Shown: one piece after another, positions 22,032-64,000 of the stretch
How positions within the stretch are numbered: position 1 is the first letter of the stretch
Layout of the letters: every line of letters starts with the position of its first letter
Source: Bacteroidia bacterium
GTDB lineage: Bacteria; Bacteroidota; Bacteroidia; SpSt-205
Direction: 5' to 3'
DNA: 64,000 nucleotides
NCBI GenBank assembly: GCA_026003215.1
Contig: BPGV01000001.1
Location: 2,202,466 to 2,266,465 of the forward strand
Translations under genes and position numbers: made by a program
The notes under the pieces: generated by a model
Database searches by the model: none
What the model was told of the DNA's origin: nothing
The model's input: only the letters and a program-made list of their open reading frames with translations

Positions 22032-22801
22032 GGGAGGGCGAAGAGGGCCCGGGCATTCTCGGTGGTGCGTTCTATGAGGGTAGAGAGGGGGAGTTGGCGG
22101 AGTTCGGCTAAGGTGCGGGCGGTGTAGAGCAGGTAGCTACTTTCATTGCGGCGGCCCCGGAAAGGGGTAGGGGTAAGGTAGGGGCTGTCCGTCTCCAGAA
22201 GGAGGCGGTCCAGCGGGAGTTTCTTGACAGCTTCTTGTAAAGCCGTGGCTTTTTTGTAGGTAAGTACGCCGCCGATTCCTAAGTAAAAGCCTTGGTCAAT
22301 AATCTTTTTTCCTTCTTCGTACGAGCCGGTGAAGCAGTGGAATACCCCTTTAAGTCTCCCAATAAAAGGCCTAAGGACCTCAAGGGATTCGTCTAACGCA
22401 TTGCGAAAGTGAATAGAAACGGGCAAGTTATACTGGATGGCCCATTCGGCCTGACGGAAAAGCGCTTCTTCTTGCCAGGCGCGGGTGGAGGTTTCATGGT
22501 AAAGGTCTAAGCCTATTTCCCCGATGGCTATCCACGGATACGTAGAGAGGTGTTGTTCTAAGAGGGTCAGCTCTTCTGGAAAGTTTTCTTTTACGTGGTT
22601 AGGATGTAGCCCTATCATGCCAAAGTAAAAATCGGGGGCCAGCTGTATGAGTTTTTTCAAGTCAGGCAGGGTATGGCTGTCTAAGTTAGGCAAAAGCACG
22701 GCCTCGCATATGCTGCGGGCACGATGGGTAACGGCCTCTTCTTCACCAGCAAAATCTTTCAGAAACAAGTGCGCGTGCGTGTCAATGAGACGGGCTTCCA
22801 T
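22010..22801 (-). CDS. tatD: TatD-family metal-dependent hydrolase/DNase
   Basis: IDTHAHL at the N-terminus and a conserved His/Glu/Asp ligand pattern. 263 aa. Confidence 0.85.
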   Translation of the reverse strand: MEARLIDTHAHLFLKDFAGEEEAVTHRARSICEAVLLPNLDSHTLPDLKKLIQLAPDFYFGMIGLHPNHVKENFPEELTLLEQHLSTYPWIAIGEIGLDLYHETSTRAWQEEALFRQAEWAIQYNLPVSIHFRNALDESLEVLRPFIGRLKGVFHCFTGSYEEGKKIIDQGFYLGIGGVLTYKKATALQEAVKKLPLDRLLLETDSPYLTPTPFRGRRNESSYLLYTARTLAELRQLPLSTLIERTTENARALFALPHGRNGS

Positions 22802-23370
22802 GTGATAGTGGGATATATTTTGTGGAGTTCGTAGCGCATTCTATCTATAATAGGGGCTAAAGAGTCTTCGGCTCCAGCTACTTTGAAGTAAGAGGCTATC
22901 ATCACAGCATAGCGCGTCGAGTCGGTAAAAAATAAAAGCGCATGGGTAGGTACATCGCCATAGAGCTCGTAGAAAAACCCTTTACCTGTTTGGCTACGGA
23001 CAGGTTTTTCGCTGATATCGGTGGCCCTAATGGCGTGTTTATAGATGAGCTTTCGGTAGATTTCTAAGGCTTTGGCTGGGGTAGTATGGAGCTGGGCCAG
23101 ATCATGGGCTGTAATATGCCAGTAAGCATCTAAATCAGGAAAGTATAAATCAAACCAGCACGAGTCTTTGGGCACATAATGCAAGCGAGCATAAGCCGGG
23201 TAAGCAAAGCGTATAGGACATATTTCACAGGCGAGCGTATCATACCGTCCGGTATCAGGTAGCAGGAGCCTGGGGTAGGTCTTGGGGCGAGGAAACGGCT
23301 GACTCTGGCAGCCGATAAGCCCGAATACGCTCAATCCGATGAGGGCTTCTATCCACCACTTCAAAGGCAT
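22759..23370 (-). CDS. gldD: Lipoprotein, candidate gliding-motility GldD
   Basis: The lipobox (GLIGC), a ~200-aa length, and a position immediately downstream of a gldE-like gene match the gldE-gldD arrangement described in Flavobacterium. Sequence similarity cannot be verified by eye. Confidence 0.4.
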   Translation of the reverse strand: MPLKWWIEALIGLSVFGLIGCQSQPFPRPKTYPRLLLPDTGRYDTLACEICPIRFAYPAYARLHYVPKDSCWFDLYFPDLDAYWHITAHDLAQLHTTPAKALEIYRKLIYKHAIRATDISEKPVRSQTGKGFFYELYGDVPTHALLFFTDSTRYAVMIASYFKVAGAEDSLAPIIDRMRYELHKIYPTITWKPVSLTRTRTCF

Positions 23371-24592
23371 AGTTGCGGTAATATATGGTTTCTCCTTTCT
23401 CCGGGATGTCTTCTGCGAGCGAGAGTAGAAACTCAGCCAGGTTTTCGGCGTTTCTGGCGGCTTCTTCTTGGAAAAAGTCTGATGGCAGCTGAAGTACTTC
23501 TTGAACGATTACCAAAGGAGTATGCGCTTGAAAATATACGCTACCCTCGGACTGGATCTCGTAAAGGAAAGAGGTAGGATGTTCCTCTTCTCTGTATCCA
23601 AACACTACCTCTAACAAGCGCTGGAGTGAAATAATCCCCGCCACAGAACCAAACTCATCCACCACAATAGCTACATGCTGGCGCTGGTTTTTGAGTTCTA
23701 TCAAAAGCTCGTAGGCATTTTTATTTTCCGGCACAAAATAGGCGGGCCTGATAAGCGCCTGCCAGTTTGAAACTTCTTCTTTTGGCCAGTGCGGCAAGAT
23801 ATCCTTTACCATTAATATGCCTCGTATATCGTCTAAACTTTCTTGATAGATAGGGATGCGTATGTATGGAAGCGAGCTTAGGGTAGCTTTGAGCTCTTGC
23901 CAAGAAAGTGATATCGGGATAGCCTTCATGTCCATGCGAGATATCATAAAAGACTTTATCGGCAAGCGGCGTAAGAGAAGGAGATTCTTAAGAACTTTCT
24001 TTTCAATAGGAGGGGATAGCTCTGTGGGAAGGAGTTCTACGAGGTCGGAGAGGCTTTCTGGGGAAGAGGTGGGCTTCCAGTAGCGTTCTATCTGGTGGCG
24101 GAGTGTAGTCAGTTTTTGCGTAAGAGGATATACCAGCCAAAAAATGAGCTGCACAAGCGGAGTTCCCCAGCGAAGAAATACCCTCGGCCGCGTGAGGGCC
24201 AGCGTTTTAGGGAGGATCTCTCCTAATAGTACAATAATTGCCAACGCCATGAGCGCAGATAGCCCCTCGCCATAAGGAAGCCCCCACGCTTGGGCCGTAT
24301 AAAAGAGGAGGAGGGTAAGGCCGAGATTGGCTAAAGTATTGCCTACAAGGAGCACACTCAGGAGCACCTCGGGCTGCTCTGCAAAGTATCTGACCCAATA
24401 GGCCCATGGGCGGTGCTTGTAGGAGCTGAGAAGCTTATGTATGTCTCCTCCACTTAGGCTAAAAAAGGCCGTCTCGTATCCCGAGAAAGTGGCTGAGAGT
24501 AAAAGGAAAGCGACTGTGCCTACAAGGGGTACTGGGTCCAACGCAGGACAAAGGTAAGAAGATTCCGAAAGAGTGGTCCCTGCAACCGCCAA
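23255..24592 (-). CDS. gldE: CNNM/HlyC-CorC family membrane protein (DUF21 + CBS pair + CorC_HlyC), candidate gliding-motility GldE
   Basis: Four N-terminal TM helices, tandem CBS-like regions, and a C-terminal transporter-associated domain. It is 445 aa and followed by a lipoprotein, as expected for GldE. Confidence 0.65.
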   Translation of the reverse strand: MAVAGTTLSESSYLCPALDPVPLVGTVAFLLLSATFSGYETAFFSLSGGDIHKLLSSYKHRPWAYWVRYFAEQPEVLLSVLLVGNTLANLGLTLLLFYTAQAWGLPYGEGLSALMALAIIVLLGEILPKTLALTRPRVFLRWGTPLVQLIFWLVYPLTQKLTTLRHQIERYWKPTSSPESLSDLVELLPTELSPPIEKKVLKNLLLLRRLPIKSFMISRMDMKAIPISLSWQELKATLSSLPYIRIPIYQESLDDIRGILMVKDILPHWPKEEVSNWQALIRPAYFVPENKNAYELLIELKNQRQHVAIVVDEFGSVAGIISLQRLLEVVFGYREEEHPTSFLYEIQSEGSVYFQAHTPLVIVQEVLQLPSDFFQEEAARNAENLAEFLLSLAEDIPEKGETIYYRNYAFEVVDRSPHRIERIRAYRLPESAVSSPQDLPQAPAT

Positions 24593-24825: not shown

Positions 24826-24880
24826 CCTGCTTAGGCAGGCCTTTTTGTGGGGCGGTGCAGCCGCCTGTGGCGGCTGCACC
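24826..24880. terminator. Two consecutive GC-rich perfect hairpins (ggcctgc-ttag-gcaggcc; ggcggtgcagccgcc-tgt-ggcggctgcaccgcc)
   Basis: Inverted repeats read directly from the sequence, with a T-run (ctttttgtgg) between them. They belong to a hairpin family seen elsewhere in the window. Confidence 0.45.
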
Positions 24881-25355
24881 GCCCCCTGCTTTTTACTAAA
24901 CTTGTCCTGGGCAAACATGTCCCCCTTTTTCTGGCTCCAACTCTGGGGCACCCCTCTCGCCCTGGCTTCAGAGGTTGCCCCCCGCTATACCTACCTACCG
25001 CTACGGTAGGCGCTCATAGACTGCGACTCGCTTCTGCGGCACGCCGGGCTGAAGGATACCATAACCTCCTTATGGGAGCCGTGAGAGGGCTATCGTTTAG
25101 CGCAGACTGCTAACGGAGTTACTCTCTCTGCAGGCGACACCCTCGGGTGGATATATGGTTTGTATGCCCTTCTGCAAGAGAAGTGGGGTTTTGTCTTCAT
25201 GCATCCGCAGGTCACGGTGCGCACGGATCATTTGCCCTGCTGGCGGGTACTGGAAGCGGTCCCTCGTTTCTCTTGGCGAGGATTGCATTTGCGTACGCAG
25301 CACCCTATCGAGCTTACCGAACCTTTACTGATCCTTCTTTTCCCGAGGGAGAGCG

Positions 25356-35220: not shown

Positions 35221-35297
35221 GCGGGCGGCGGCGCCGCCACAGCGGCGCCGCCGCCCGCATAAAAAAGGGGCGGGGCGGCCGTAGGCCGCCCCGCCCC
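35221..35297. terminator. Bidirectional terminator region made of two GC-only perfect hairpins between convergent genes
   Basis: gcgggcggcggcgccgcc-acag-cggcgccgccgcccgc and ggggcggggcggcc-gtag-gccgccccgcccc, flanked by A/T runs (ataaaaaa, caaaaaatc). Confidence 0.55.
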
Positions 35298-38885: not shown

Positions 38886-41030
38886 TTGTCTGGTATGGCT
38901 CGGCTGCTTTTACTGGGATTGGGGATAATCTGGGCACAAGTGGGCTTGCGGCGGATTGCTCCGCCGGTCGTAATGGCCCAGGAAACCCTACTTAATCCTT
39001 GGACAGGCGGGTGGAATGCACCGCAGTTTTCTACTATAGATGGCGATGGGGATGGGATAGCAGAGCTCTTTGTGTTTGACCGAGCCGATAACCGAGCTTT
39101 TCTTTTCCAAGCTACGCCTCAGGGCTGGCGATGGATGCCTCAGGGAGATACCCTTTTCCCCACCGAAAAGCTTTCCGCTTGGGTGCTTCTGCGGGATTAT
39201 GACGGGGATGGAGATAAAGACCTCTTTACAGCGGTAGGGTCAAATATCCGAGTGTTCCAAAATATAGCTTCAGCCGGGGCTCCCCCCCGGTGGCGTCTGG
39301 CTTATGATACCCTTAGCTCGGTGTATTATGGGAGTTCTACTTATCTCTACTGCGGCTCCATAGACATACCCACCCTCACCGACATAGATAACGACGGCGA
39401 TACAGACCTCTTAGTTTATGAGGTACTGGGGAGCCTGATAGAATGGCACCGTAACCAAGCGCAAGAGCTTTTCGGTCGGGCAGATACCCTTATCTTCGTG
39501 CTTCAGTCGGGCTGCTGGGGCCATGTGTTTGAAAACTACGACTACAACACCAATCAGTTTTCGTTTGTTTCGTATACCTGCGGTGCGGGACAAAGAACCT
39601 CAGGCGAGGGCCGTACCTATCATAGTGGAGGCACCATTTTAGCCATAGACCTTAATAAAGATGGTCTAAAAGACCTGATTGTAGGGGATGATGGACCGCC
39701 TTATTTGATTACCGGCTTCAATAGCGGCTCGCTCCAAGTCGCGCATATAGACCCGGCTACGGCTATCTCGCCGTATCCGCCTTTGGCGCCGGCGTATATG
39801 CCGAGTTTTCCTGCCACCTATTATGAAGATGGAACAGGGGATGGTTTGCCCGATCTAATAGTCGCCAATAACAGCCCGTTGGCGGGACGCGACACTTGGA
39901 GCGTGTGGCTGTATCCCAATACGGCGCGAGCTGACTCCCCCCACTGGGCTATGCCCATAGGGGGATGGCTCCACCGCAGCCAGATAGACATCGGTACAGC
40001 GGCTCATCCTACTTTGGCGGACCTCAATCGCGATGGGTATCCCGACCTGCTCCTAAGCTGCGAAGGCTTCTACACCGATACCGGCCAAAAGGCGCGAGCC
40101 TACCTTTTCTGGGGTTCTGCCACAGGCTTTACGCTGGCCGACTCTAACTGGCTGAGCCTGCCTACCTACACCTTGCGCAATCCTGTTTTTACGGTCGGAG
40201 ATATAGACGCGAATGGGCGTACAGACCTTTTGATGGGTACCAGTACGGGGGCTTTATGGCGCTGGGAAGAAAACAGCCCGGGCAGCGCCAGCTTTTCGCT
40301 CCTTACCCAGAACTTCGCTGGGATTAGCGGGCCAGCCTTTGCGGCGCCGCTCCTCTATGACTACGACCAAGACGGCGACCTGGACCTCGTCATAGGCGGA
40401 CGGCCCGGCCGCCTCTCCCTCTATCGGCAAGAAGCCGGCGGCACCTTCACCCACATAACCGACTCCTTGGGCCAAATCTTCATGAATGATACCCTCAGTA
40501 CTTTCTTAGGTTTTACCCGGCCAGCCCTAATAGACCTTAATAAGGACGGCACCTTAGAGCTACTGGTAGGGAACCTGACGGGTTTTTTGTGGGTGTACCT
40601 CCCGGACTGGAATACTCCCACAGCCCCTTGGCCTAAGGTGGCAGAGCTACCTTATGCCGGAGGCAAGCGGGCCAGCCCCACCGTATGGATGACACCTGAC
40701 TCGGTACTCTTACTGGTAGGTACCTTGCGCGGTGGAGTGCAAGCTTTTACCCTTGCGCCAGGAGGGCCGACGGCGAATGTCCTCCCCGCTGCCCAGCCTA
40801 AACCCTATGCCGTGTCTGTGCAGGGGCCAGGGCTGCACTTCGTAGCCAATGCGCCTTTGGAAGTGGAGGTATACACGCTTTTGGGAGAGCGGTTGCAGCG
40901 GTTTAGCGGCGTGGGGGAATTAAAGTGGGCTGTGCCAGGGCCAGGGGTATATGTCCTGCGGGTTTGGAGTGGGGTAGGGTTATGGGTGGAGAAGGTGTGG
41001 GTGGGGGGGGAGGGGGTGCCAGCGCCGTAG
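38886..41030 (+). CDS. FG-GAP/VCBS-repeat secreted protein with a T9SS C-terminal sorting domain
   Basis: Repeated DxDGDGxxDL calcium-binding FG-GAP motifs (DGDGDKDLF, DNDGDTDLLV, DANGRTDLL, DQDGDLDLV). The C-terminal ~80 aa are CTD-like (VEVYTLLGERL...VYVLRVWSG). Confidence 0.65.
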   Translation: MSGMARLLLLGLGIIWAQVGLRRIAPPVVMAQETLLNPWTGGWNAPQFSTIDGDGDGIAELFVFDRADNRAFLFQATPQGWRWMPQGDTLFPTEKLSAWVLLRDYDGDGDKDLFTAVGSNIRVFQNIASAGAPPRWRLAYDTLSSVYYGSSTYLYCGSIDIPTLTDIDNDGDTDLLVYEVLGSLIEWHRNQAQELFGRADTLIFVLQSGCWGHVFENYDYNTNQFSFVSYTCGAGQRTSGEGRTYHSGGTILAIDLNKDGLKDLIVGDDGPPYLITGFNSGSLQVAHIDPATAISPYPPLAPAYMPSFPATYYEDGTGDGLPDLIVANNSPLAGRDTWSVWLYPNTARADSPHWAMPIGGWLHRSQIDIGTAAHPTLADLNRDGYPDLLLSCEGFYTDTGQKARAYLFWGSATGFTLADSNWLSLPTYTLRNPVFTVGDIDANGRTDLLMGTSTGALWRWEENSPGSASFSLLTQNFAGISGPAFAAPLLYDYDQDGDLDLVIGGRPGRLSLYRQEAGGTFTHITDSLGQIFMNDTLSTFLGFTRPALIDLNKDGTLELLVGNLTGFLWVYLPDWNTPTAPWPKVAELPYAGGKRASPTVWMTPDSVLLLVGTLRGGVQAFTLAPGGPTANVLPAAQPKPYAVSVQGPGLHFVANAPLEVEVYTLLGERLQRFSGVGELKWAVPGPGVYVLRVWSGVGLWVEKVWVGGEGVPAP

Positions 41031-41118
41031 GCGCTGGCACCCCGTATGGGGCCGGGCGGGCCGCAGGCCCGGCCGGCCCAGCGGCGGCCGCTGCCGCAGG
41101 CAGCGGCCGCCGCTCCCT
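41015..41118. repeat. GC-rich triple-hairpin element, copy 1 (paralogous to 45786-45886)
   Basis: Three consecutive perfect palindromes: ggtgccagcgcc-gtag-gcgctggcacc, gggccgggcgggcc-gcag-gcccggccggccc and gcggcggccgctgcc-gca-ggcagcggccgccgc. It overlaps the stop codon of the FG-GAP gene. Confidence 0.65.
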
Positions 41119-41516: not shown

Positions 41517-44500
41517 ATGCGTCTCGTAGGCATATATGGGCTTGCTTCGCTTCTATGGGCACAGACTATCTTAGTGAACGGTACAGGTGCGGGTTCCTTT
41601 GAAGGGGGCACGGGTTGTACTGGTAACTCTTATACTGTGGATGGCTGGACCATCGTTAATGGCACGCAGACCAACCGCTGGGCTGTCAATACCGGCGCTG
41701 GGGCCCAGCATGGCAGCCGGGCTATCTATATCACGAATAACTGTGGCGCTACCCCCCCCTCCTAATTCGTATACTATAACTTCTTCCTCCGTTGTACATT
41801 TTTATCGGGATGTGGCGCTGCCAGCAGGAGAGCCTTACATGACTATTTCGTTTTATGTAAAGGTCGAGGGAGAAGGCACTACTACTCAGTATGATTATTT
41901 GGATGTTTTGGTGGCCCCGACGAGTGTAACGCCTGCGGCAGGTACTGAGGTGAGTAGCACCTATCGGCTGGCGCGGTATAACCTACTGGGGAGTAGTTGG
42001 GTGCAGCGGACAGTGCGCTTTTGTGGGACAGGAGGGCAGACCTACCGGGTGATATTTTCTTGGCGGAATGATGCATCGGCGGGCACGCAGCCGCCCGCTG
42101 CCGTAGATCAAGTGCATATCACCAGTTCGGCTACGCCGCCTCCTACGCCCTGGATTGTGAATGTTTCTGCCCTCCCCTACAGCCACGGCGCTGATAATAC
42201 CTGTGGGAAAGGGAATAACCTCACCAGCAGCAATGTGTCTCCTACTTGCGGGAGTACTTCCTATTATGGTGGGGAGGATATGGTATGGGTTTTCACGCCG
42301 AACAGCTCTGGTATGGTTACGATTACGCTGAATGCTTCTACTACCTATACGGGTCTTAAGTTGTATCAGGGGGGGACGCTCAATCCGTGTGGCGGGCTCA
42401 CGGGGGCCACCTGCGTAGGCGAGGCAAACTCGGGGTCGAGCACCGCCAGTAACCTTACCCTCACTGCCTGTGTTCAGCCCGGGCAGACCTACTACCTGCA
42501 AGTAGATTATTGGCCTTCTCCTACGTGCGGTGCGATTACGAATCTCACTATTTCGGCGCCAACGCCCCTGGAGCCTGTACAGGCTTGGGTACGGGCGTGA
42601 CGACCGTCACCGCGCTTCCCTACAATAGCGGAGCCGGCACTACGTGTGGCGCTGTGGATGACATCACCTCCAGTAACGCGTGGAGCTGTGGGAGTAGCAG
42701 CTACTTTACCGGGGAGGATAGGGTATGGGTCTTCACGCCTACCACCTCGGGCGCCGTAACGATTACCCTGACCCACAGTAATGCCAGCTCGCCCTGGTTT
42801 GGTCTGAAGGTGTATGAGGGCTGCCCGCGTACTTCCAGTTGCGGGGTATGTGTAGGCTCTTGTGAAAGTAGTAGTGGGCCTTATTCCTTTAATGTAAATG
42901 TCACAGCGGGGAAGACCTATTATGTGGTATTGGATCATTATGCCTCGCCTGCTTGCGCTTCGTATGACAATCTGTCCATCTCTGCCCCAGTGAGTGGGGG
43001 AGGCGGAGCCTGTGGGTCGCCGGTCCTCTCCAGCTTTCCGGTGATTACGACGGGCACGACTGCTGGGGCGCCGCCGTTGGGGGTCTCGCCGAGTTGTGCC
43101 GTAGGGGGTAGCTGTGGAGGGGGTGGCGCTGTCGGACGGTGGTATCAGTTTATCCCTACGGCTTCCAATATGACTATTCATGTAGCGCCGGGCACCCTTA
43201 CCGACCCCGCCGTGGTTGTATTCAGCGCGCCTTCGTGTGGTGGGCCTTTCACAGAGATAGCCTGTCAGCAGGATGGTAGCAACACGGGGAATGACTGTGA
43301 GAGTTTTCCCTACTATGCCCATTTAGACCTTACCGGGCTTACCGTGGGGCAGACCTACTACATAGCAGTTTTTGGGGCGTCAGGCAGTGGGGATTATACC
43401 TTGGCGATATGGGAGACGGCCGCGCAGCCTCCTTCGCAGTTTGGGCAGGACTGTAACGCGATATCGGGCAACCCCGCCACCGGTCCGCTCCCCGTATGTA
43501 GTTCTACCTTTTCGGTGGGTGCACCGGGTTTTTTGGGGTCTGGTTTTACCTGTGACCTGCCGTATCCTGCCTCAGGTTGTCCAGGAAGTTGCCTGACCAG
43601 TGGAGAACGGAATATTGTTTGGCTCCGCCTCCCGATTGCCAGTAGTGGTAACCTCTCCTTTGCCATCACCCCCGCTCAAAATGTAGACTACGACTGGACC
43701 TTGTACCGTATAGATAATGTGTCTAACCCCTGCCAAGCTATACGTAATGGCACATTGCAGCCTGTAAGGTGTAGTTATGATGCGCCTACCTCGTGCGATG
43801 GCACCTATGGTACAGGGGTAGCGTGTGGTACGCCGGGGTGTGCTTCCGGCACCTGTGAAGGATCAAGCGGGCAAGGGTGGCTGCAGTGCCTACCCGTAAA
43901 TGCCGGCGAGGTGTATCTTTTAGGGATTTCTAACTTTAGCACGAGTACCTTTCCCGGGTTTAGTGTAGATTTTGGGACATCGCCGATTGATTATGGAGCG
44001 GCGAGTGCAGGACCGGCGGTGTGGACGGGCGGCGGCGGCACCACCGCCTGGAATAACAACGCCAACTGGGGTGGGTGCGCCTTTCCAGATAACTGTGCCA
44101 AGGATGTGGTAATCTACGGCGGCGCCGCTAACCAGCCGGTGATTGCTGCTGCAGAGACCTGGACGGTACAAAATATCACCATTCCTGCTGGGGCTAAGCT
44201 CACCGTCAATGGCACCCTCAACGTCTGCGGTCACCTCACCGTAAATGGGGAGCTGGACGGCACCGGCTGGATTGTGTTTGTTGGGGGGGCTGCTTACCCG
44301 GTGCAGGAGATACGCGGCGTGCTCACAGGGCCTACCCAATACATCCCCAACCTGCGCATAAACCGTGCTGCCGCCGGGACGGTGCGCCTCATGACCAACG
44401 TCCAAGTGCGTGGCCATGTGCAAATAGACAATAGCGCCAATAACACCCTGAACCTCAACAGCTATACCTTATTCGTAGGGGGGAACTTCGTAAATGTGGG

Positions 44501-45782
44501 GGCAGCTGGGACCTTTACCCATGGCAATGGTAGGGTTGTCTTCAACGGCACTGGCCCACAGACCTATACCGACCCCGGCATAGACCCCTTCTATACCGTA
44601 GAGATGAACCAAAATCCCCCCTCCACCCTCACACTCAATAATCGCATGGACATCACGAATCAGCTTACGCTCACTTCGGGGGTGATTGTTACGGGCACAA
44701 ATGAGGTTCGGGTAACCAATACCGCCACTACGGCTGTGACCCCCGGCAACACCAATAGCTATGTGCGAGGATACCTTCGGCGGTATATTGGAGGTATGGG
44801 CGGGTATGACTTTCCGGTGGGTACTGCCTCGTACCAGCGGGCAAATGTGAACTTCACTGCGGCACCGGGGGTACATAACCTCTTAGCGTGGTTCAACGAT
44901 TGGGCTCCTTCTCCGCCGACCCCGCCTAATCCCACTGCGGAGTGCGGCGCTCAATACCACGCTTGTCCCATGCTGAATAACGGCTACTGGACTATCAATG
45001 CCTATAATAGCAGCTTTGCGCAGGTGACTTCCAGTGGTACTTACACGATGACGCTCTACAATACGGCCTATACGGCGTGTGCGGGAGCTGTACAATTCGG
45101 GGTATTGAAGAATACGGGCGCTGGGTGGTTCATTCAAAACCCGGGCTGTTATGCCAATGCCAGTGCAGCGACGGTTCAGCGGCCGGGCATGAGCGGCTTC
45201 TCTAACTTTGGTACGGGACAAAGCCTCACCCCTCTGCCGGTGTATCTCACCCGCTGGGAAGGGGAGGTTCGGCCGGATGAGTCGCACCTGCTGCGGTGGG
45301 ATGTGGTGGCGGAGGAGACGCGGGTTTCTCGCTTTGTGGTAGAGACAGGCGCTGCGCCGGAGGCACTCTCTCCATGGCGTACCTTCGGCCCCGAAGTACG
45401 GCAAGCTGTGCGGGAAAATCCGCCGTTTGGCAGCTCCTTCTATCGGCTGCGTATTTACACGGTGGAAGGGGCCGAGTTTGCGAGTTCGGTGATAGAGCTG
45501 CAGCGGGGAGTGGGGAGTATCAATCCCTTGCAAAGTCTGGAAGCCTTCCCGAATCCTACGACGGGAGAACTTACGGTGCGCTTTATGGTAGGTGAGCTGA
45601 CTCCGGTGCATTTGTCGCTGGTGAATGCGCTGGGGCAGCGCGTATGGGAAAAGGTAGTGGAGCCTGCGGCTAAGGGATGGGTGGAGGTGCCGGTGGATAT
45701 GCGGGCTTTGCCGGTGGGGCCGTATCTATTGCGGGTAGAGGGCGAAGGGGTAGTGCGGACGCGGGTGGTAGTGCGTGAGTGA
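41517..45782 (+). pseudogene. Giant T9SS-secreted adhesin-like protein split into three frames (41517-41765, 41587-42600, 42510-45782). Domains: Cys-rich domains, PPC-like, right-handed beta-helix, type-A CTD
   Basis: Signal peptide at 41517. The first frame change is exactly at a C8 tract (41752-41759), where C7 would give a continuous reading. A second frame change lies between 42556 and 42600, near a cccc run. Two tandem ~130-aa Cys-containing domains (ALPY..TCG..GED.VWVFTP..VTITL..GLK.Y.G..YY..NL.ISAP) bridge the breaks in the correct order. The CTD is ...HLSLVNALGQRVWEK...YLLRVEGEGVVRTRVVV. Confidence 0.6.
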
Positions 45783-45785
45783 GTA

Positions 45786-45886
45786 GGGGCGCCAGCGCCT
45801 GCGGCGCTGGCGCCCCGTATGGGGCCGGGCGGGCCTGCGGCCCGCCCGGCCCCGCGGCGGCCGCTGCCACAGGCAGCGGCCGCCGC
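45786..45886. repeat. GC-rich triple-hairpin element, copy 2 (about 90% identical to copy 1)
   Basis: ggggcgccagcgcc-tgc-ggcgctggcgcccc, ggggccgggcgggcc-tgc-ggcccgcccggcccc and gcggcggccgctgcc-aca-ggcagcggccgccgc. It lies immediately after the stop of the giant T9SS gene. Confidence 0.65.
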
Positions 45887-50026: not shown

Positions 50027-53000
50027 ATGGGCCGACTTTTGCTAAGGCTGCTATGGATAGGCGGGCTACTCGCACAAGAATGCGATATCATTTATGTCAC
50101 CCCGAATGGTGCCACCGGGCCTGGCGCCGGGACCCGCGATAATCCCGCCGAGCTCAACTATGCTATTGCTAACCTCCTCACGCCTACTATCCGCCGCATC
50201 TACCTGGGCTATGGGATTTACACCTTGACGCAGCCCCTCCCCCTCCATAACGGTCTACAACTGGAAGGGGGCTTTGACCCCAGCCAAGCCTGGGTAAAAA
50301 CCAACCTTTACCCTACTATCCTCTTCCGAGCAGCAGTGAATCCCCAGTCTAACCCCAGCCGGCTCGTGGCTATAGAGGGTATAAATGTGAACGGCTTCCG
50401 CATACAAGACCTGGAGGTGTATGTGGAGGATGCGACGGCCTTGGGGGCAGGTACTACTACCTATGCCCTCTATTTGAATGGGTGCAGCAACTATGTGGTG
50501 AATCGCTGTCGGTTTTCGGCGGGGGCGGGGGCGAATGGCGACCCTGGTCAAAATGGCGCTGCAGGCCGCAATGGGGCGGCTGGACAGATAGGCCAGCAAG
50601 GGGATGAAGATGCCGGCTGCTGCCGAGCCGGGGGCGCAGGCGGCAATAGCTGGTCGGGCGGTCTCGTAGCCGGCGGCCGCGGCGGCGACGGCGGCCAACG
50701 TGGCACCTGTGGCCCTGGTGGCCAAGCTTATAATGGCGCGCCGGGCCAACAAGGTATCCCTCCCTCTCCCCAGCCGTATGCACCCGCAGGCGGCGCCGGA
50801 GGGGCTGGCGGCGTAGGAAATAGCTCTATCATTTCTTTGGGGTGTGACAACTTCGCTGCTCAGAATGGCGCCGATGGACAGCCTGGCCAAGATGGAACCA
50901 ATGGCGCTGCTGGGGGGCCCGGTACGCCTACCCATGCCGGCGGCTTCTTTCGCCCAGGCGATGGGCAGGACGGCCAAGATGGCCAGCATGGCTCCGGCGG
51001 CGGGGGCGGCGGTGGTGGCGGTAGCCAAGGTAATCTGCTATGTTTTCCGTCTAATCTTAACGGGACAGGTGCCGGCGGCGGCGGCGGTGGAGAAGGCGGC
51101 GAAGGGGGCAAAGGCGGCAAAGGCGGCGGGGGCGGCGGCGGCTCCTTCGGCATCTACCTCTGGAATAACGGCGCTAATGCCCTCTTTGTGGATGTAATAG
51201 CCGCATCCAGCTTGCCGGGAGCCGGCGCCCCAGGAGGATTTGGCGGCATCGGCGGCATAGGGGGCAGTGGCGGCTGCGGTGGCGCTCGCGGCTGCGCCGG
51301 CCAGCCTAACGCTTGCGATATTGGCTATGGCGGTAACGGCGGCCGTGGGGGCAACGGGGGGAACGGCGGCAACGGCGGCCCAGGCGTCGCCGGCCTCGCC
51401 CAAGACGTCTATATCTCTGCGGGTAGCACAGCGCCTACCCTCTCGTCCTTCCGCAGTCCCGACGAACCTAAAATCTTTGTGCGTTACACTGGCTGCACCG
51501 AGCGTACCGTGAAACTTTGGACCGATGCGGCGGGCTACATCGTCTGGTTCTTCGGGCCAGGGAGTACCCCCCCTACAGCTATCGGCGATACCGTCACTAC
51601 CCGCTATACGACCCTCGGCCGTAAAAGCCTTTCCCTCATCGTCAATGGCCAGACCTACACCTATTACGAGTTTTTGGACATTCGGGATGATGGGACGGGT
51701 ACTAATCCTACCTTCACGCAAAGTGCCGATACGGTATGCTTAGGCGGGCAAGTCACCTTCACCAGCAGCTTAGCTGGTGCCGCTAACTACCTCTGGGACT
51801 TCGGCGGAGGCGCCCCGCCTGTCTCTGGCCCCCTCAATAACATAGCCCAGCCGACCTTCAATACCCCAGGTACTTTTGTGGTGACCCACCAGACCTATTC
51901 GCCCTGCTGCGGCTGGTCTGACCCCTACCAGGATACCATAGTGGTTTTGCCCACGCCCGCTCCTACGCTGACTATACAAACCTCTACGGGTTCTACGGAA
52001 ACGTGCGAGGGTACGCCTGTTATCTTTACCGCTCAGCTCCAAAACTTTGCGCCCAATCCGACCATCACTTGGCAGGTGAATGGTACCCCCCGCAGGCACG
52101 GGCCAGACCTTTATCCTCACCAATCCCCAGCCGGGCGACCAAGTGCAAGCCATCGCCATCGGCAATACCGCCTGTTCCCGAGGACAGCCCATTTCGTCTA
52201 ATACGATCACCCTTACTGTCCATCCCCGTCCTGTTATTCAGCCGCTGGCAGTGGGCTGCTTCCAAATCACAGGGAACCTTGTGCCCGGAGACCTGATTAC
52301 GCTCTCGGCTTCGGTCTCGGGCGGGAGCGTGCCCTATCAGTTTTATTGGGACTTAGGGGATGGGCGCGGCGCTACAGGCAATCCCGCTACCGTCATGTAT
52401 CCTACTGCGGGTACTTACCGCTTGCGGCTTACAGTAGTAGATGCCAACGGCTGTACCAGCAGTAATACCGCTGCTTGCGAGACTACCTTGGTGATTGCTT
52501 ATCGGCCGGTGGCGGCCTTCTCGGCCACGCCTCTCCAGGGCTGCCCACCCCTCACGGTCTCCTTCACGAACCAGAGCATCTACGCAAACGCTTACCTCTG
52601 GGACTTTGGCGATGGCTCTCCCACTACCACTCAGCTTAACCCCATGCATACTTACACTACCTCAGGCGAATACACGGTTACTTTATACGCCATCTCGGCA
52701 GGAAACAACGATACGGCCACCGTGCAAAATCAAGTGGTGGTCTATCCCGTACCGGTGGCAGATTTCTCGGTATTCCCGCCCGTACTTTATGAAGCCGATA
52801 CTGCCTATTTTGTCTCTCAGGCGCAAGGGGCAAGTAGCTGGCTGTGGTTCTTTGGCGACCCTGCTAACCCTAACGCCTCGTCCACCGACCCGAACCCCTC
52901 GTACTTTTACGCACAACCGGGCAGCTATACGGTCACCCTCATCGTAACCAACCTCTACGGCTGTAAAGATACTTTGGTCAAGACGGATGCCGTTATAAAA

Positions 53001-53258
53001 CTCCCCAATCCAGCGCCTACGGCTTTGGGTACGTTCCCCCGAGAAGCCGTGCAGGTGTGGCCTAATCCCTTCACAGACAAGCTCTATGTGCGCTTACCGG
53101 AGGAAGCCTCTCTCGTGATGTACGATGCGCATGGGGTCTTGATATGGGAAGGGCAGTTGTCCCGGGGCATGCAGGCTTTGTCTTTCATGCAGCTGCCGAC
53201 GGGATTATACTTTTTACGGATAGGCCCTTGGACAATCAAAGTACATAAACTCGGCTAA
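50027..53258 (+). pseudogene. Giant Gly-rich/collagen-like PKD-domain T9SS cargo protein, split at a C6 tract (fragments 50027-52201 and 52080-53258)
   Basis: Signal peptide, an N-terminal domain paralogous to the 53263 gene, and collagen-like GXY runs (GDPGQNGAAGRNGAAGQIGQQG). It also has poly-Gly, PKD-like WDFGGG/WDFGDGS units and a C-terminal CTD. The frame switches at the cccccc run 52086-52091, where C5 would read ...VNGTPAGTGQTFILT continuously. Confidence 0.6.
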
Positions 53259-53262
53259 TCTT

Positions 53263-56200
53263 ATGGCAAAAATATACGCTTTCTGGCTGGCTTCGTTATA
53301 TGTATATGGCCAGGCCTGTGGCTATTTGTATGTGTCTCCCATGGGTACAGCCACGGCTGCGGGTACGCCGGCGGATCCGCTTTCGCTGTCCGCGGCCATA
53401 GCCCAGGCAGCTGCAGGTCCGATAAAGCACATTCGGCTGGCGATAGGGGATTATCCGCTGACTGCGCCGCTCTCCTTGGAGGATAACCTTATTTTAGAGG
53501 GGGGCTTTGACCTAAGCAATCCCGCCCAACCGGTCAAGCGCAGTGGGGGCATCACGCGCCTACGTAGGCTCAGTGGTACGCCGGAGCCTAACCCCTGCCG
53601 CCTTGTAGCCGTTCAAGCTGTCAGCAAGACTGGCTTTGAGCTCCATGACCTCTATATAGAGGTAGAAAATGCCAGCTCGACGGCGGATGGGCCCAGCTGC
53701 TCTACCTATGGCTTGTACTTGAATGGCTGCGCTAACTATCAGATTGTGCGGTGTCGGATTCATGCGGGGAATGCTACGGATGGAAAGCCCGGCGATCCTG
53801 TGCCTAATGGCCGCGATGGGGCTCCCGGCACCAAGGGTGAAGATGGCTGCCGTCAGTGCCAGCCTGGGGTAGATGATCCCAATAACGACGGGGGGGGAGG
53901 CGGCAGTAGCTGGTCAGGGGGCGCCCAAGCGGGGGGTAATGGCGGTAATGGTGCTCCCATTGGTACAGGACGCGGTCCTGCTGGGTGTTTTGACCTTAAC
54001 TTTTGTAACGGCGCTTCAGCTCCTAATGGGCAGCCCGGCCAAAACGGTGCTACCACTGTCATGGGGCAGCCCGTAGGACTGGGCGGCGGGTCGGGTCAAG
54101 GCCAAAATATCTGTGCTAACTTCACTGATGCAGCGGGCTTTATCGGAGCCTTAGGGGGATGTCCGTCGGATGATCCGTTGCGCGGGGGCCAGCCTGGCAC
54201 GGATGGGGCTAATGGCCGGGACGGAGCGGATGGTCAGCCCGGTAGCCCCGCTTTTACAGGAGGGTGGTTTATCCCTGGGAATGGGCAGGATGGCCAGCCT
54301 GGGGAGCATGGCGCGGGTGGAGGTGGGGGGGGGGGGGAGGGGGTGCGCTCGGCGGAATCCCTTATGATATTGCCTGCTTTCGCATAGACGATGGCTACAC
54401 GAATAGTTCCGGTGGGGGCGGTGGTGGGGGTGGGGAAGGTGGGGAAGGTGGCCCTGGGGGCAAAGGCGGCGGTGGGGGCGGTGGGGCTTTTGCGCTCTTC
54501 CTCTGGAATAACGGCGCAAATGGGGTCATCCGAGACTGTCCCCTCACGGTGGGCCAGCCCGGCCAAGGGGCCCCCGGCTCGCCGGGGGGTTTAGGCGGAC
54601 AAGGAGGGGCCGGCGGCTGCGGTGGTGGATGGATTGGCTCACCTTGTACCCGCTTCTGTGGCTCGCCGCCCCTTCCCAACAATAGCTGTGGGGCCGGCTG
54701 CCAAGGGGGATGGGGCGGCAACGGCGGAAAAGGCGGCAACGGCGGCAAAGGCGGAAAAGGCGGCGATGGCGCTGCAGGTATTGCTCAGCCCTTCTATCAA
54801 AACCTTGCCGGCCAACCCCCTACCCAAACCAACAGCTTCGTTCCCACCGAAACGCCTATTGCCGTGTCGGGCCTCGTCTGTACCCACTCGGAGGTCACCT
54901 TCACTGTGGAGAATGCCGACCCTCTCACTCAATATGAGTGGGGCTTCGGCGCTAATGCGCAGCCCATCTTCGGCTATGGTCCTACCGCTACTACGGCTTT
55001 TACTTCGGCCGGCTTTCATACTATCCTGCTGCGCGTGAATGCCGTGCCCTTCCGATACACCCTTTTTGCCTCCCCGCTCCAACCGGGGGTTATTCCCGAT
55101 ATTCAACCAGTGGGCAGTCTTCCCGTGTGTTTAGGCGCTACTGCTACCTTCCAAGCTAACCTCACCAATCCCGCCAACCGCTCCATTCTGGAATACCACT
55201 GGCAGCTTACAGGCCCTGTCTCGGATAATGTTTCATCGGCGACGGCTTCCACTTATACTACGCCCGCTTTGACCCAAACAGGTACTTATACCCTGTACTT
55301 GCGGGTACGCTCCGAGTGCTGCGGGTGGTCCTTACGCGATTCGCTCACTTTTCAGGTAGTGCCTTCGCAGACGATGACGGCGCAGCTTATCGCCGCGCCG
55401 CCTGCCGTATGTGCAGGCGAGCCTATCACCCTTACGGTAGTAGGCGGAAACCTTGGCGCTACGCCTACCTTCGTATGGCGTAAAAACGGCAGTCCCATTG
55501 CAGGCGCACCTAATGCCCCCACTTACACCGACCCTGCCCCCCAAAACGGCGATGTATATGAAGTCCAGGTCACTTCCAGCCTGGCCTGTATCAGCAATAA
55601 CCCCCTCACTACTAACACGGTTACGGTGGTAGTGCATCCTCGTCCGCAGCTCGCTTGCACCTCGCCCCTGAGTGGGTATTTGGGGGCACCCGTAACCTTT
55701 ACTATTGATGCTTCCAATGCTGGGCAGCTCCAAGGGCCTTTCTCTTACCAGATTGATTTAGGTAATGGCTTTTCGGTGACAGGTCAGTCGGCTACTTTGC
55801 CCGCCTCAGCTGCGGCTTCGTACGGAGGCGCAGGAACTTATACGGCTACTATTACCATGACCGACGCCAATGGCTGCTCGGCCTCTTGCCAGGTCACGGT
55901 GAATATCTCTGCGGCCCCGCCTCCTACGGCAGACTTTACTGCTGACAGGCAGGAGGGCTGTGACCAGCTCACGGTTACCTTCACCGCTACCCCCCCAGCA
56001 GACGAATACCGATGGGATTTTGGCGATGGCACCCCACCCCTTACCACTACCCAAAATCCCGTCCAGCATACTTACGCCCAGGTAGGCTTCTACACCGTGC
56101 GGCTGGAAGCCCGCTTCGGAGCTACCTGGGTCCCCGTGGAAAAGGTGCATTATATCCGAGTGTATCGTACCCCTTCCCCCCAGATTGGCGTGCTAAGCGC

Positions 56201-57185
56201 TATTTGTGAAAACCAGCCCGTGCAGTTTGGCGATATCGGTTCGGATGGATATAGCTGGCTGTGGGACTTTGGAGATGGAACCACCAGTACAGCCCCGGGC
56301 CCCCAGCATGTGTATGCTACCTCGGGTACCTATACCGTGACGCTTACTGCGTGGAGCCATAACCGCGTGTGTTCTACCACTGTGCAGACGCAGGTAGTAG
56401 TAGCTCGCCAGCCCCAAGCCAGTTTCAACCTCTCTCCTACGGAGGGGTGTCCTCCCTTTACGGTCACGCCGGAAAATACGTCTAATCCCTCGGGTGCGCC
56501 GGGCGTGTATTATATCTGGGTCTGGGGTGATGGCAGCCGGGATACGGTTTCTGCGCTTACGGCGCCCAGTCATACCTATACGCAGAGTGGTACCTTTACG
56601 CTGCAGCTGGTAGCGGTAAGCTCGGAAGGCTGCCGCGATACGGCGCAGGCGCAGGTGGTGGTACGTCCTCGGCCGCAGGCGGCTTTCTCGCCGCAGCAGG
56701 TGACCCAAACCCAGCCCAATACGCAAGTCTCCTTTACCAACCAATCCCAAGGCGCTGCCTCGTACTTGTGGGACTTTGGGAATGGCCAGACTACCACCGA
56801 AGCCCAGCCGGGGCCGGTGGATTTCCCCAATCCAGGCACTTATACGGTGCTGCTTATTGCCTACTCGGCCCAAGGTTGCCCTGACACGGCCCGAGGTATC
56901 GTCGTCATAGAGCCCGGCCTGGATATCTTCATCCCGAATATCTTTACCCCTAACGGCGATGGTATCAACGATGTATGGCAGATTCGTGCCACCCTATCCT
57001 ATCAAGTATGGGTGTATGACCGCTGGGGCAACTTAGTCTTTGAGGGGGATAATACCCGGCTCTGGGATGGGCGCAAGCGCGGCGGAGGCGACTGCCCGGA
57101 GGGCGCCTATACCTACAAGCTTATTGCCAGGCTGCCGAACGGCCAGACCTTTACCCGTTCGGGTACCGTAACCCTTCTCCGCTGA
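53263..57185 (+). pseudogene. Giant Gly-rich/collagen-like PKD-domain protein with a T9SS type-B (CHU_C-like) sorting domain, split at a G13 tract (fragments 53263-54387 and 54264-57185)
   Basis: Paralogous N-terminal domain (YLNGCANYQIVRCRIHAGNA versus YLNGCSNYVVNRCRFSAGAG in the upstream gene), GXY collagen-like triplets and multiple PKD-like WDFGDGT units. The C-terminus FIPNIFTPNGDGINDVWQI...YDRWGNLVFEG is the type-B sorting domain. The reading frame changes exactly at the 13-G run 54325-54337. Confidence 0.6.
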
Positions 57186-57682: not shown

Positions 57683-58867
57683 ATGACCAATAGGGTACAA
57701 ATTTTGGTTTTGAGACTTGCTCTGGTACTAAGTAATCTTTTGGCGCAGAATGTAGGTATCGGCACGAGCACACCTGTTTCCCGGTTGCATGTAGCAGGAA
57801 CGAATGCTACCCTTACCGTAGGCCCCTTTGGTATAGGCCAGAGTGAGGGGCGGATCGTAGCCACAGGAAGTGCAGCAGAGATTTCATTTGTGAGGAGAAC
57901 TCTTACCACTTGGCCTACTTCCCCTCAGCCTGGAGATAGATTCGCTTGGCATAATCCTGACGGTACTGCTCGCCTGTGGTCCAATGCCGACTTGGTATGG
58001 GTAACTGCGGGGGGTTATGTGGGCATAGGGACTTCGCCTGGGGTGCCGTTGCACGTGCGGAAGGATGCACCTGCTTCTCAGCCTACCGCAGCTTTCTTGA
58101 ATGCGAGCGGCGTAGGAGTATACATAGGCCACATAAGTGGCACAGGTACCTATGGCTCTGTACAAGGTAGGAATGGCGGTTCCTCCGCAAACCTTATTCT
58201 CCAAGAAAATGGAGGGCTTGTAGGCATAGGAATCAATACCCCCCAAGTAAAGCTCCATGTTGTAGATGTGATTGAGGCTTCCGCACCTGACTATAATCAA
58301 AAATCGGCTTCTATTACTGGAGACGGATCCGTGGAGCTTCTGCGTAACCCAAACTCGGGTGCATTGCCTTGTACTGGTGTATGGGGTTATATTGATTTTA
58401 AGAACCTTCGTTCAGATGACCATGATGGGCGTATCCTATATGGGGATGGCCCCTGTTCCCCGAGCACTCCTCCGACAGAGGGTTTTTACTTTCTGAGAGG
58501 GCTAAATGGGCAATCCTCCATAGGGACCTACACCAGCACAGGCTGGGGACATTCCTCGGATGGTCGTCTTAAGACAGATGTACATCCCCTCTCTGGCGCC
58601 TTAGAGCGGGTTATGCGTTTGCGTCCTGTGTATTTCCGGTGGAAAAATGAACCTCATCAACGACAAGTGGGATTTATTGCGCAAGAGGTAGCCGACGTTT
58701 TTCCGGAGGTAGTTTCGCAGGTGGAGGATACCTATGTGCTCTACCACGGAAGCTTGACAGCGCCATTAGCGGGCGCCATTCAGGAGCTATATCAGATTAT
58801 CGAAGCCCAGCGTGAGGAGATCCGGCAACTCAAAGCGCGCATAGAAGCTTTGGAGCGGAGTAGATAA
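57683..58867 (+). CDS. Tail-fibre-like secreted protein with a C-terminal peptidase-S74 intramolecular chaperone domain
   Basis: Signal peptide, then repeated (N/Y/L)VGIGT..P...LHV motifs (x3+). The C-terminus SSDGRLKTDVHPLSGALERVMRLRPVYFRWK...VGFIAQEVADVFPEVV is followed by a coiled coil, which is the endosialidase-chaperone (S74) signature. Confidence 0.6.
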   Translation: MTNRVQILVLRLALVLSNLLAQNVGIGTSTPVSRLHVAGTNATLTVGPFGIGQSEGRIVATGSAAEISFVRRTLTTWPTSPQPGDRFAWHNPDGTARLWSNADLVWVTAGGYVGIGTSPGVPLHVRKDAPASQPTAAFLNASGVGVYIGHISGTGTYGSVQGRNGGSSANLILQENGGLVGIGINTPQVKLHVVDVIEASAPDYNQKSASITGDGSVELLRNPNSGALPCTGVWGYIDFKNLRSDDHDGRILYGDGPCSPSTPPTEGFYFLRGLNGQSSIGTYTSTGWGHSSDGRLKTDVHPLSGALERVMRLRPVYFRWKNEPHQRQVGFIAQEVADVFPEVVSQVEDTYVLYHGSLTAPLAGAIQELYQIIEAQREEIRQLKARIEALERSR

Positions 58868-58895
58868 GAGCTCCCGCTTTTGGGGTTGAAGGCTT

Positions 58896-59705
58896 TTACA
58901 CCGCCACCGGTGCAGGTAGCGCCGGATGATGCTGGTAGTTCAGGAGGGTAACATCTTCCGGGGTAAAATCATCCAGCTCTCGCTTGAAGGGATTTAGAGC
59001 GATTTGAGGGAGAGGATACGGTGTGCGACTAAGCTGAATGCGCGCCTGCTCCTCATGGTTTCGGTACAAATGCACATCCCCTAAGGCAAATACCACCCGA
59101 TGCGGCGTATAGCCTGTACAGTGAGCTACCAGATGAAGCAGGAGGGCATACGAGGCCACGTTGAACGGTAGGCCCAAAAACACATCGGCGCTGCGTTGAT
59201 ACACTTGGATAGATAGCCGCTGGCTGTCTGGCTCAGCATAAAACTGGAAGAGCACATGACAAGGGGGCAGTTTCATCTCTGGCAGCTGGGCTACGTTCCA
59301 TGCGGAGACGAGGAGGCGGCGGCTGTAGGGGTTTTCGCGCAGGCTCCGAATCACAGCACCCAGTTGGTCGTAGGCTTCGCCCTTGTAGCCGGGCCAGCGC
59401 CGCCATTGATACCCATAAATCGGCCCTAATTCCCCCGCTTCATCCGCCCACTCATCCCAAATCGTCACCTGGTGCTCATGAAGATAACGAATATTCGTTT
59501 CCCCCCGCAAAAACCAAAAAAGCTCAAACAAAATGGACTTGAAATGCACCTTCTTGGTGGTCAAAAGCGGAAATCCCTCCGACAGATCCACATCCAGCTG
59601 TACCCCAAAAAGCCCACGGGTACCTACGCCGGTCCTATCCATGCGGACGGGGGCGCTAAGGAGACGCTCCAGCAGAGAGAGATAGGCCCTTTCGTAGCGG
59701 CTCAT
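58896..59705 (-). CDS. thyA: Thymidylate synthase
   Basis: RTGVGT, LLTTKKVHFKSI, the catalytic Cys context (LPPCH), and a length of 269 aa. Confidence 0.9.
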   Translation of the reverse strand: MSRYERAYLSLLERLLSAPVRMDRTGVGTRGLFGVQLDVDLSEGFPLLTTKKVHFKSILFELFWFLRGETNIRYLHEHQVTIWDEWADEAGELGPIYGYQWRRWPGYKGEAYDQLGAVIRSLRENPYSRRLLVSAWNVAQLPEMKLPPCHVLFQFYAEPDSQRLSIQVYQRSADVFLGLPFNVASYALLLHLVAHCTGYTPHRVVFALGDVHLYRNHEEQARIQLSRTPYPLPQIALNPFKRELDDFTPEDVTLLNYQHHPALPAPVAV

Positions 59706-62565: not shown

Positions 62566-62623
62566 GGGCTGCAAAGTTAGCGCCGGGGCCCGCACCCTTG
62601 GAGAGAAGGTGTATTTTTGCTTT

Positions 62624-64000
62624 ATGGCCAAAAGTGGGTGGGTAATAGGGGGCCTTATAAGCTTCTTCGGGCTCTGGGCGCAGGAGGTTTTTTATGGGGA
62701 TTTGCGGTTTCGGGTGGCGCCGCCGGCCCGTACCTTAGCCGCTCAAGTAGAGTGGCACTTCCAAAACTTCCAGGGGCAGGAGATGGCCTGGGACTTGGGG
62801 CCCGGCTTAGAGATAGATACGCTGGCCGCCTCCGTGGGAGTAGATACCTTTTGGCGAGATACCGCCGCCCGCAAGGTATATGTGCGCTTCTCGGTGCCTT
62901 TGCAAGGCGAGCCGGCCTGGATACGCGTGACCTACCACGGAGAGCCGCGCAGCTCCGGCTTCGGTTCCTACGAAGTACAGAAACACGCCACAGGCTGGTG
63001 CCTCTGGACCCTCTCGCAACCTTATGGCGCGCCCGATTGGCTCTTTTGCCGAGATGGCCTCTCCGACAAAGTAGATTCTTTAGACATCCTTGTCAGCACG
63101 CCAGCGGAGTTATTGGGAGTAGCTAACGGCCGACTAATACAAGACAGCATAGACGTACAGGGGTGGCGCCATAGGAGCTTCCGACATCGGTACCCTATCG
63201 CGGTGTATCTTATTGCTTTTGCTGCTTCTAACTACGTAGTGCAGGAGTTTCCCGTGCAGACGCCTTATCATACTTTTACCCTGCGAAACTATGTTTTTCC
63301 ACAAGATACGGCCGCTGCTCGGCAGCTTTCGCAGCAGTTTATTCCGTACATATCTTGGTTAGAAGAACGCATAGGGCCTTATCCGTTTGCCTCGGAGGAT
63401 TATCAGCAGGTTCAGATAGGCTGGGGGGGCGGGATGGAACACCAGACGGTGACTTTTTTTTGGGCGTTATACGCTGGAGCTGTGGGCGCATGAACTGGCC
63501 CATCAGTGGTTTGGCGACTGGGTCACCTGTGGGAGCTGGCACGATATCTGGCTCAATGAATCTTTTGCGACTTACTTAGGGGCACTGGCTTACGAAGCCG
63601 TAGCTCCACAATGGTGGCCGGTGTGGCGTAAAGGAGCTATTCTGCGCGCTTGGCAAGACACTCTCCACACCATATGGGTCGACGACACCTCCGATTTCCG
63701 TCGTATCTTTCTATACGAGACCACTTACCTGAAAGGCGCGTTGGCCCTGTATACCCTGAGGCTGTATGTAGGCGATTCGCTCTTTTGGGGAGCCTTGCGT
63801 AGGTATTTGGACACCTATGCCCGTGGGTTTGCAAAAACTGGAGATTTTATCACAGCCACGGCCCCTATTTTGTCAGAAAGAATAGCTCAAAGCTTTGTAG
63901 AGAGCTGGATATATACGCCGCATTTTCCTCGCCTACGCATTACATGGATAGACGGTAAGAGCGCACAAGTAGAAAGCTTTACAGCTTATCCTATGCGAGT
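62624..64000 (+). pseudogene. M1-family aminopeptidase (aminopeptidase N-like), partial at the window end and frameshifted at a T8 tract
   Basis: Signal peptide MAKSGWVIGGLISFFGLWAQ. The GAMEN-like GGMEHQT motif is in one frame, and the zinc motif HELAHQWFGDW...WLNESFATY is in the +1 frame. The junction is the ttttttttt run 63454-63461, where T7 would read ...VTFFGRYTLELWAHELAHQWFG. Confidence 0.65.

Follow-up and report, generated by a model that had tools for sequence, protein, structure and literature searches.

The window analysed here, a stretch of 64,000 nucleotides from the Bacteroidia genome KatS3mg025 (contig BPGV01000001.1, positions 2,202,466 to 2,266,465), carries three adjacent genes for giant surface proteins that are predicted cargo of the type IX secretion system (T9SS). 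The second of these genes, referred to as gene 2, lies at positions 50027-53258 and is annotated as two consecutive genes, KatS3mg025_1955 and KatS3mg025_1956. We report that it is a single gene of 1076 codons, interrupted by one extra C in a short C tract, and we weigh whether this extra base is a real variant of the source population or a product of the assembly. Genes 1-3, the features of gene 2, and the tail-fibre-like and M1 peptidase genes described below are on the forward strand; positions are in window coordinates.

Gene 2 is a single gene interrupted at a C tract

Two open reading frames (ORFs) overlap in different frames at the locus: ORF A (50027-52201; 724 residues; GIV24296.1, KatS3mg025_1955) and ORF B (52080-53258; 392 residues). 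In their overlap lies a run of six Cs (C6) at 52086-52091, read as ACC CCC C, where the window sequence is GGTACCCCCCGCAGG and the wider context CAGGTGAATGGTACCCCCCGCAGGC. ORF A is plausible up to ...ITWQVNGTP, that is over its 688 N-terminal codons; afterwards come 36 unconserved, out-of-frame codons and a stop, the tail past the tract being ...WQVNGTPRRHGPDLYPHQSPAGRPSASHRHRQYRLFPRTAHFV*. The mechanical start of ORF B at 52080 is an internal ATG, from which this frame reads AGTGQTFILTNPQPGDQVQAIAIGNTAC... and goes on through PKD domains and a C-terminal sorting domain to the stop at 53258. The actual in-frame continuation of ORF A occupies 52092-53258 and begins with AGTGQTF.... A preliminary description of the locus had claimed that the first frame turns to nonsense after the C6 run and that the overlapping frame resumes the PKD and C-terminal sequence. 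This claim and its coordinates are correct, and only the ORF A tail that it quoted, although properly located, fell 13 residues short. It had also predicted that a run of five Cs (C5) would rejoin the two frames. Indeed, removing one C gives exactly the predicted junction, ...ITWQVNGTPAGTGQTFILTNPQPGDQVQAIAIGNTAC..., and a fused protein of 1076 residues.

By itself, the tract is unremarkable, since the window contains 14 C6 runs for 13.6 expected under a first-order Markov model that keeps its dinucleotide frequencies. What exceeds chance is the coincidence of the frame break with the tract: a one-base correction at this place restores a protein that is identical to a database protein (P0122, NCBI MCX7981056.1) over 1076/1076 residues. 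Furthermore, when the corrected sequence was searched against 5.8 billion proteins, it retrieved single-ORF orthologues of 1073-1077 residues (96, 83, 81, 76 and 72% identity; 99-100% coverage), together with hundreds of further homologues that share the same architecture. In an alignment of 12 orthologues, the sequence is continuous and conserved on both sides of the junction. This junction, at residue 688, falls within an Ig/PKD-like domain (51962-52232) that is matched by Ig_3 and PKD_3 over residues 646-704. Because of the identity with MCX7981056.1, the single-ORF orthologues and the conservation of a domain across the junction, the locus is one gene. The full-length match obtained once a single C is removed is also the alignment on which the preliminary description had made its proposal depend.

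The GenBank annotation, with KatS3mg025_1955 and KatS3mg025_1956 as two entries, speaks for two genuine and separate genes. This would require a natural gene boundary inside a conserved Ig-like domain and an ORF A whose last 36 codons are conserved nowhere, and no homologue is split in this way. The single-ORF orthologues, the continuous alignment and the 1076/1076 match refute the two-gene explanation, to which we give practically no credence.

The domain content of the corrected protein points to a T9SS cargo. A signal-peptide-like N-terminus (50027-50077; MGRLLLRLLWIGGLLAQ) was recognised by eye from the sequence alone. It is followed by a Gly-rich region (residues 166-470; 50522-51436) with 39% Gly and short G-X-Y runs, by the Ig/PKD-like domain that spans the junction and, downstream of the break, by all of the PKD domains (52247-52997) and by a putative type A T9SS C-terminal sorting domain (residues 1010-1066; 53055-53225), which is missing from the ORF A product. 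The PKD domains score above the Pfam threshold (PKD_4, 133.6 bits over three stretches for a cutoff of 27; PKD, 114 bits). The sorting domain scores just below the curated cutoffs (PF18962, Por_Secre_tail, 24.5 bits, E = 3.4e-5, cutoff 27; TIGR04183, 19.9 bits, cutoff 23), and database records assign PF18962 to the orthologues P0001, P0002, P0004 and P0005. The window also encodes components of the T9SS/gliding machinery, namely a GldD lipoprotein (PF25593, E = 1.7e-28) and an adjacent CNNM/CorC GldE-like gene, at 22759-24592. As judged from its domains, the product of gene 2 would be a secreted protein of 1076 residues in which a signal peptide precedes a beta-helix-like N-terminal part and a Gly-rich region, and the Ig/PKD domains are followed by a T9SS sorting domain. 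It resembles the PKD-repeat T9SS cargo of Bacteroidota (type A, Por_Secre_tail / TIGR04183) in its signal-peptide-like N-terminus, its tandem PKD/Ig domains and its putative C-terminal sorting domain, and differs from this cargo in the sorting-domain scores and in being out of frame in the KatS3mg025 assembly. Of the label “collagen-like T9SS gene” used in the preliminary description, the first half is loose: no match to Collagen (PF01391) was found in the protein at E ≤ 0.1, and the longest G-X-Y run counts 10 triplets, mostly poly-Gly.

Tract length in other assemblies and in the source reads

The extra C is specific to the data set from Katase, the hot spring from which KatS3mg025 originates, and the break is not conserved. 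C5 is found in every other assembly of the species, that is in all contigs at 98-99.95% nucleotide identity. These come from four independent assemblies: JGI 3300045136 (contig L003), Logan SRR35365466 (L004/L088), Logan SRR30649429 (L090) and NCBI GCA_026416395.1 (L089/L098). L090 differs from the window by a single mismatch in 8.5 kb. The preliminary description had raised the question of whether orthologues carry C5; near-identical strains from all four other data sets do. A syntenic relative at 89% identity (L001) reads GGC ACG CCC GCA at the tract, from which it follows that a synonymous ACG-to-ACC change created the C run and that this run is unconserved. We read C5 as the functional and ancestral state, and C6 as a null allele. 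Since the gene is whole in every other assembly of the same species, the break is either an ordinary slippage variant or a consensus error, and no new mechanism has to be invoked.

It could also be argued that the C6 allele still yields a full-length protein, by +1 ribosomal frameshifting on CCC-C or by transcriptional slippage. At CCC-C, tRNA-Pro is known to be prone to +1 slippage and, as in programmed +1 frameshifting of the prfB type, a potentially slippery run lies where two frames overlap. Unlike in the prfB type, the break in gene 2 is unconserved and intact alleles with identical flanks exist. Neither the orthologues nor the near-identical strains, all of them in frame, need a frameshift, and the flanks are the same in the C5 strains, hence there is no dedicated stimulator. 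A run this short, of recent origin and missing from relatives gives no sign of a programmed event. For practical purposes, programmed frameshifting can be ruled out, and recoding of any kind is extremely improbable.

On JGI contig L003, over the equivalent of 50027-57185, the gene calls leave only 592 residues of gene 2 and 759 of gene 3, although both are intact. Gene 2 of L003 translates without internal stop, and L003 agrees with the intact L004 at every difference in genes 2 and 3; the shortened calls are probably an effect of the gene caller or of masking in the Gly-rich part. The matching JGI contigs were retrieved by exact-protein look-up, and scans of JGI metagenomes with a C4-C8 DNA pattern and with an AsmA-like protein gave no match.

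KatS3mg025, of the order SpSt-205, was obtained from Katase hot-spring sediment at 52 °C as one contig of 2,268,343 bp at a coverage of 10.4; the data are PacBio Sequel II HiFi reads above Q20, assembled with metaFlye 2.8.3 and no short reads (Kato et al. 2022, PMC9671151). That this metagenome-assembled genome (MAG) derives from HiFi and not from Nanopore reads lowers the prior for a random error. The Katase HiFi run, DRR290133, is named alongside the Kato paper in PMC10928208, and Logan k-mer contigs of this run (L096, L097, L100 and L101) are 100% identical to the window over ~41 kb. At the C tract, L100 stops with ...GGTACCCCC at 52090 (...TACCCCC), while L101 begins with CCCCCGCAGG at 52087, its start reading CCCCCGCAG. 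Contig ends are expected to lie in this way if neither the base that follows five Cs nor the one that precedes the last five is unambiguous, and thus if C5 and at least C6 are both in the reads. The length of the C tract is mixed in the Katase reads.

As the sole cause of the branching at the C tract, a mixture of strains may be doubted, since over 18 kb L100 and L101 show no branches due to single-nucleotide polymorphisms (SNPs). Elsewhere, the MAG differs from another k-mer contig of the same reads, L104, by six SNPs within 600 bases (62596-63189), two of which match JGI L003. The Katase reads therefore hold at least two closely related strains, the MAG being their consensus, and a mismatch between the MAG and a k-mer contig need not be an error.

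Homopolymer breaks in neighbouring genes

Compared over 49.5 kb with the independent assemblies, the window shows eight indel differences, 8/8 of them in homopolymers. Two are noncoding (T5 in the window for T6 in the others at 24842; C6 for C7 at 24978). The others fall in gene 1 (C8 for C7 at 41752; C4 for C5 at 42565), in gene 2 (C6 for C5 at 52086), in gene 3 (G13 for G11 at 54325), in a tail-fibre-like gene (TT for TTT at 58015) and in an M1 peptidase gene (T8 for T7 at 63454). The preliminary description had presented gene 2 as the third adjacent giant gene with a break at a homopolymer, and the positions in genes 1 and 3 bear this out.

Gene 1 (41517-45782) encodes a T9SS cargo of 1421 residues if intact and has only the sorting domain in common with gene 2. 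It is broken by two opposite frameshifts, +1 at C8 (41752-41759) and -1 at C4 (42565-42568), with 271 codons out of frame between them. Gene 3 (53263-57185) and gene 2 are paralogues that share 41% identity across the N-terminal 440 residues; gene 3 encodes 1306 residues ending in a CHU_C type B sorting domain. Its G13 tract (54325-54337), in the Gly-rich part, is a +2 shift relative to the G11 of three other data sets, and in the 89% relative this run is interrupted (GGGGGTGGAGGCGGGGG). Both genes are intact in the other assemblies (1421 and 1306 residues). The M1 aminopeptidase gene, which starts at 62498, is truncated by its T8 tract (63454-63461); JGI L003 has T7 and a gene of 633 residues. 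Here a non-surface gene is affected, and the reads seem to support the break.

The states of the MAG at most of these sites are found again in the k-mer contigs of the same reads: L100 has C4 at 42565, L101 has G13 at 54325 and TT at 58015, and L104 has T8 at 63454. A bias of the metaFlye polisher as the sole cause of C4, G13, T8 and TT was considered and is ruled out by this agreement. At 41752 the two disagree, with C7 in the k-mer contig L103 and C8 in the MAG.

The tail-fibre-like gene (57683-58867; 394 residues, signal peptide, Peptidase_S74 C-terminus) is intact in the window, as it is in homologues of 59-63% identity. Four short-read assemblies from other samples have it frameshifted by TTT for TT at 58015-58016, and one of these (L005) has a second indel, C5 instead of C6 at 58239. 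The pattern of this gene is the reverse of that of genes 1-3, and the 89% relative L001 lacks the segment 57582-58892. The differences from SRR30649429 are also unevenly placed, 18 of ~20 being clustered at 57918-59583, over the tail-fibre-like gene and thyA; this substitution cluster looks like a recombination tract.

None of the eight indels lies in ordinary genes, which hold 70% of the homopolymer tracts (P about 6e-5). Indeed, the ordinary genes are free of frameshifts in ~33 kb with 238 tracts of at least 5 bases, and every housekeeping gene of the window has its full length, as seen for UvrA, GroEL, IDH, GlyRS, SerRS and ThyA; so do the genes for the TonB receptors. Overlapping ORF pairs at 18271/18837, 33095/33804, 22010/22759/23255 and 13805/16153 were considered as further frameshifts and rejected, as Pfam identifies separate intact genes with over-extended mechanical starts.

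The intergenic regions hold arrays of extremely GC-rich perfect hairpins (stems of 13-17 bp, loops of 3 nt) at 24849-24885, 35221-35297, 41013-41114 and 45786-45886, with up to three in tandem after gene 1. The two noncoding indels, at 24842 and 24978, flank such a GC hairpin, and both are outside the coverage of the k-mer contigs. Several short-read or k-mer contigs come to an end near the arrays at 24849 and 45786 (within ~100 bases), L100 is devoid of one hairpin (45828-45858), and JGI contig L102 is garbled at 41019-41106. These arrays may be REP-like (repetitive extragenic palindromic) elements or terminators. Rfam and tRNA scans of the window found no RNA genes.

With 4/8 indel differences in three adjacent surface-protein genes, dedicated phase variation has to be discussed, in which the C run of gene 2, G11/G13 of gene 3 and C7/C8 of gene 1 would act as contingency tracts that switch individual surface proteins. 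Reciprocal states (genes 1-3 off and the tail-fibre-like gene on in Katase, the reverse elsewhere) and a mixed tract length within one sample are in line with such switching. As in the poly-G/C tracts of Neisseria, Haemophilus and Campylobacter, known for slipped-strand null or phase-variable alleles, a one-base change removes the C-terminal part of the protein and both lengths occur in one sample. Unlike these tracts, that of gene 2 has 5-6 bases, is unconserved, is not near the 5′ end, is constantly C5 elsewhere and shows no evidence of reversible switching. Moreover, it stems from a synonymous ACG-to-ACC change and is not the long conserved tract, usually of at least 7 bases, that typifies such systems. 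These genes are no richer in tracts than the rest (6.0 as opposed to 7.1 per kb), no off allele is found in any other assembly, the four other data sets being uniformly C5, and G11 is stable in three data sets. Altogether, dedicated phase variation is very unlikely. A broader version is that genes 1-3 and the tail-fibre-like gene, clustered at 41.5-58.9 kb, together form a contingency set in which slippage switches surface proteins within and between hot-spring populations; this we regard as unlikely, if slightly less so. Pressure from phages or grazers on surface structures might drive such a contingency set in uncultured thermophilic SpSt-205 Bacteroidia.

A null allele or a consensus artefact

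Two explanations retain real weight. The one that we favour, with a probability of roughly one half (about 0.52), is that C6 is a real null allele that segregates beside the intact C5 allele in the Katase population. It would have arisen as a slipped-strand length variant, by lengthening of the C5 run (ACC CCC) to C6. The C6 product would end 36 nonsense codons past residue 688, without three PKD domains and the sorting signal, and, to go by its domains, would be neither exported nor anchored through the type IX system, as it has no sorting domain; from the C5 allele, the full cargo protein would be made. Since both lengths are in the source reads, a null allele beside an intact one is the most likely state, the consensus having happened to take the null length. 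We infer that C6 molecules are present in the cells, and not only in the reads, and that the variant is unprogrammed. C6 would then be part of a wider mosaic of strain-specific homopolymer frameshifts in the accessory surface-protein genes of the species.

Several observations support the null allele. First, the indels avoid ordinary genes. Second, C4, G13, T8 and TT are reproduced by a k-mer assembly that is independent of the polisher, and at least two strains are in the reads. Finally, the frameshift from TT to TTT in the tail-fibre-like gene is genuine in four short-read samples, which indicates that homopolymer frameshift alleles do segregate in the accessory surface genes of this species.

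The other explanation is that all cells are C5 and make the full-length protein, that a few HiFi reads miscall C6 and that the metaFlye consensus, at ~10x, fixed the wrong length, likewise for C8 at 41752. We consider such an artefact a serious possibility that falls short of even odds. Most of the error that remains in such data concerns homopolymer length, and this weighs against the null allele together with the nature of the assembly, which is HiFi-only, from metaFlye 2.8.3, unpolished and of low coverage (10.4x). HiFi errors are indeed essentially homopolymer-length errors (PMC13087279; PMC9262707). Intact C5 k-mers are present in the reads, and every other assembly has C5. The C8 of the MAG, for C7 in the same-read k-mer assembly at 41752, is a consensus overcall in a C run under this explanation, and it shows that the consensus is not always the read majority. 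In addition, C5/C6 is short for a hypermutable tract, and all five frame breaks are in one long-read data set, with 0 in the six other assemblies. Compared with the near-identical SRR30649429, the MAG has four homopolymer indels but two substitutions in 13 kb, and this 4:2 ratio is what technical error usually gives and more than one would expect from neutral evolution. The situation is therefore like the known problem of long-read homopolymer indel errors (the IDEEL-type problem), with a long-read-only MAG at 10x, a break in a homopolymer and intact near-identical short-read strains.

It differs from this problem in that the breaks avoid ordinary genes and that most of them are reproduced by the k-mer assembly. 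Errors should ignore gene function, which is hard to reconcile with 0 frameshifts in the ~33 kb of ordinary genes. The two sites at which the MAG and the k-mer contigs disagree or branch are both in giant genes (P about 0.04 if random among tracts), and the other breaks, C4, G13 and T8, are read-supported. Furthermore, a C5 tract should rarely be miscalled in enough HiFi reads to win the consensus. For these reasons, we lean slightly towards a real null allele over an artefact; either is a well-known phenomenon.

Whichever applies, GIV24296.1 and GIV24297.1 each represent only part of a single gene, as do GIV24289-91 and GIV24298 onwards, and they are unfit to be treated as separate proteins or used in gene-content counts. 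The comparison made here, which sets a long-read MAG beside the k-mer assembly of its own run and beside near-identical strains assembled from short reads, offers a cheap read-level hint without the reads themselves. If the null alleles are real, they would point to a rapid, strain-specific inactivation of accessory surface proteins in hot-spring Bacteroidia, a familiar kind of microdiversity that calls for no new mechanism.

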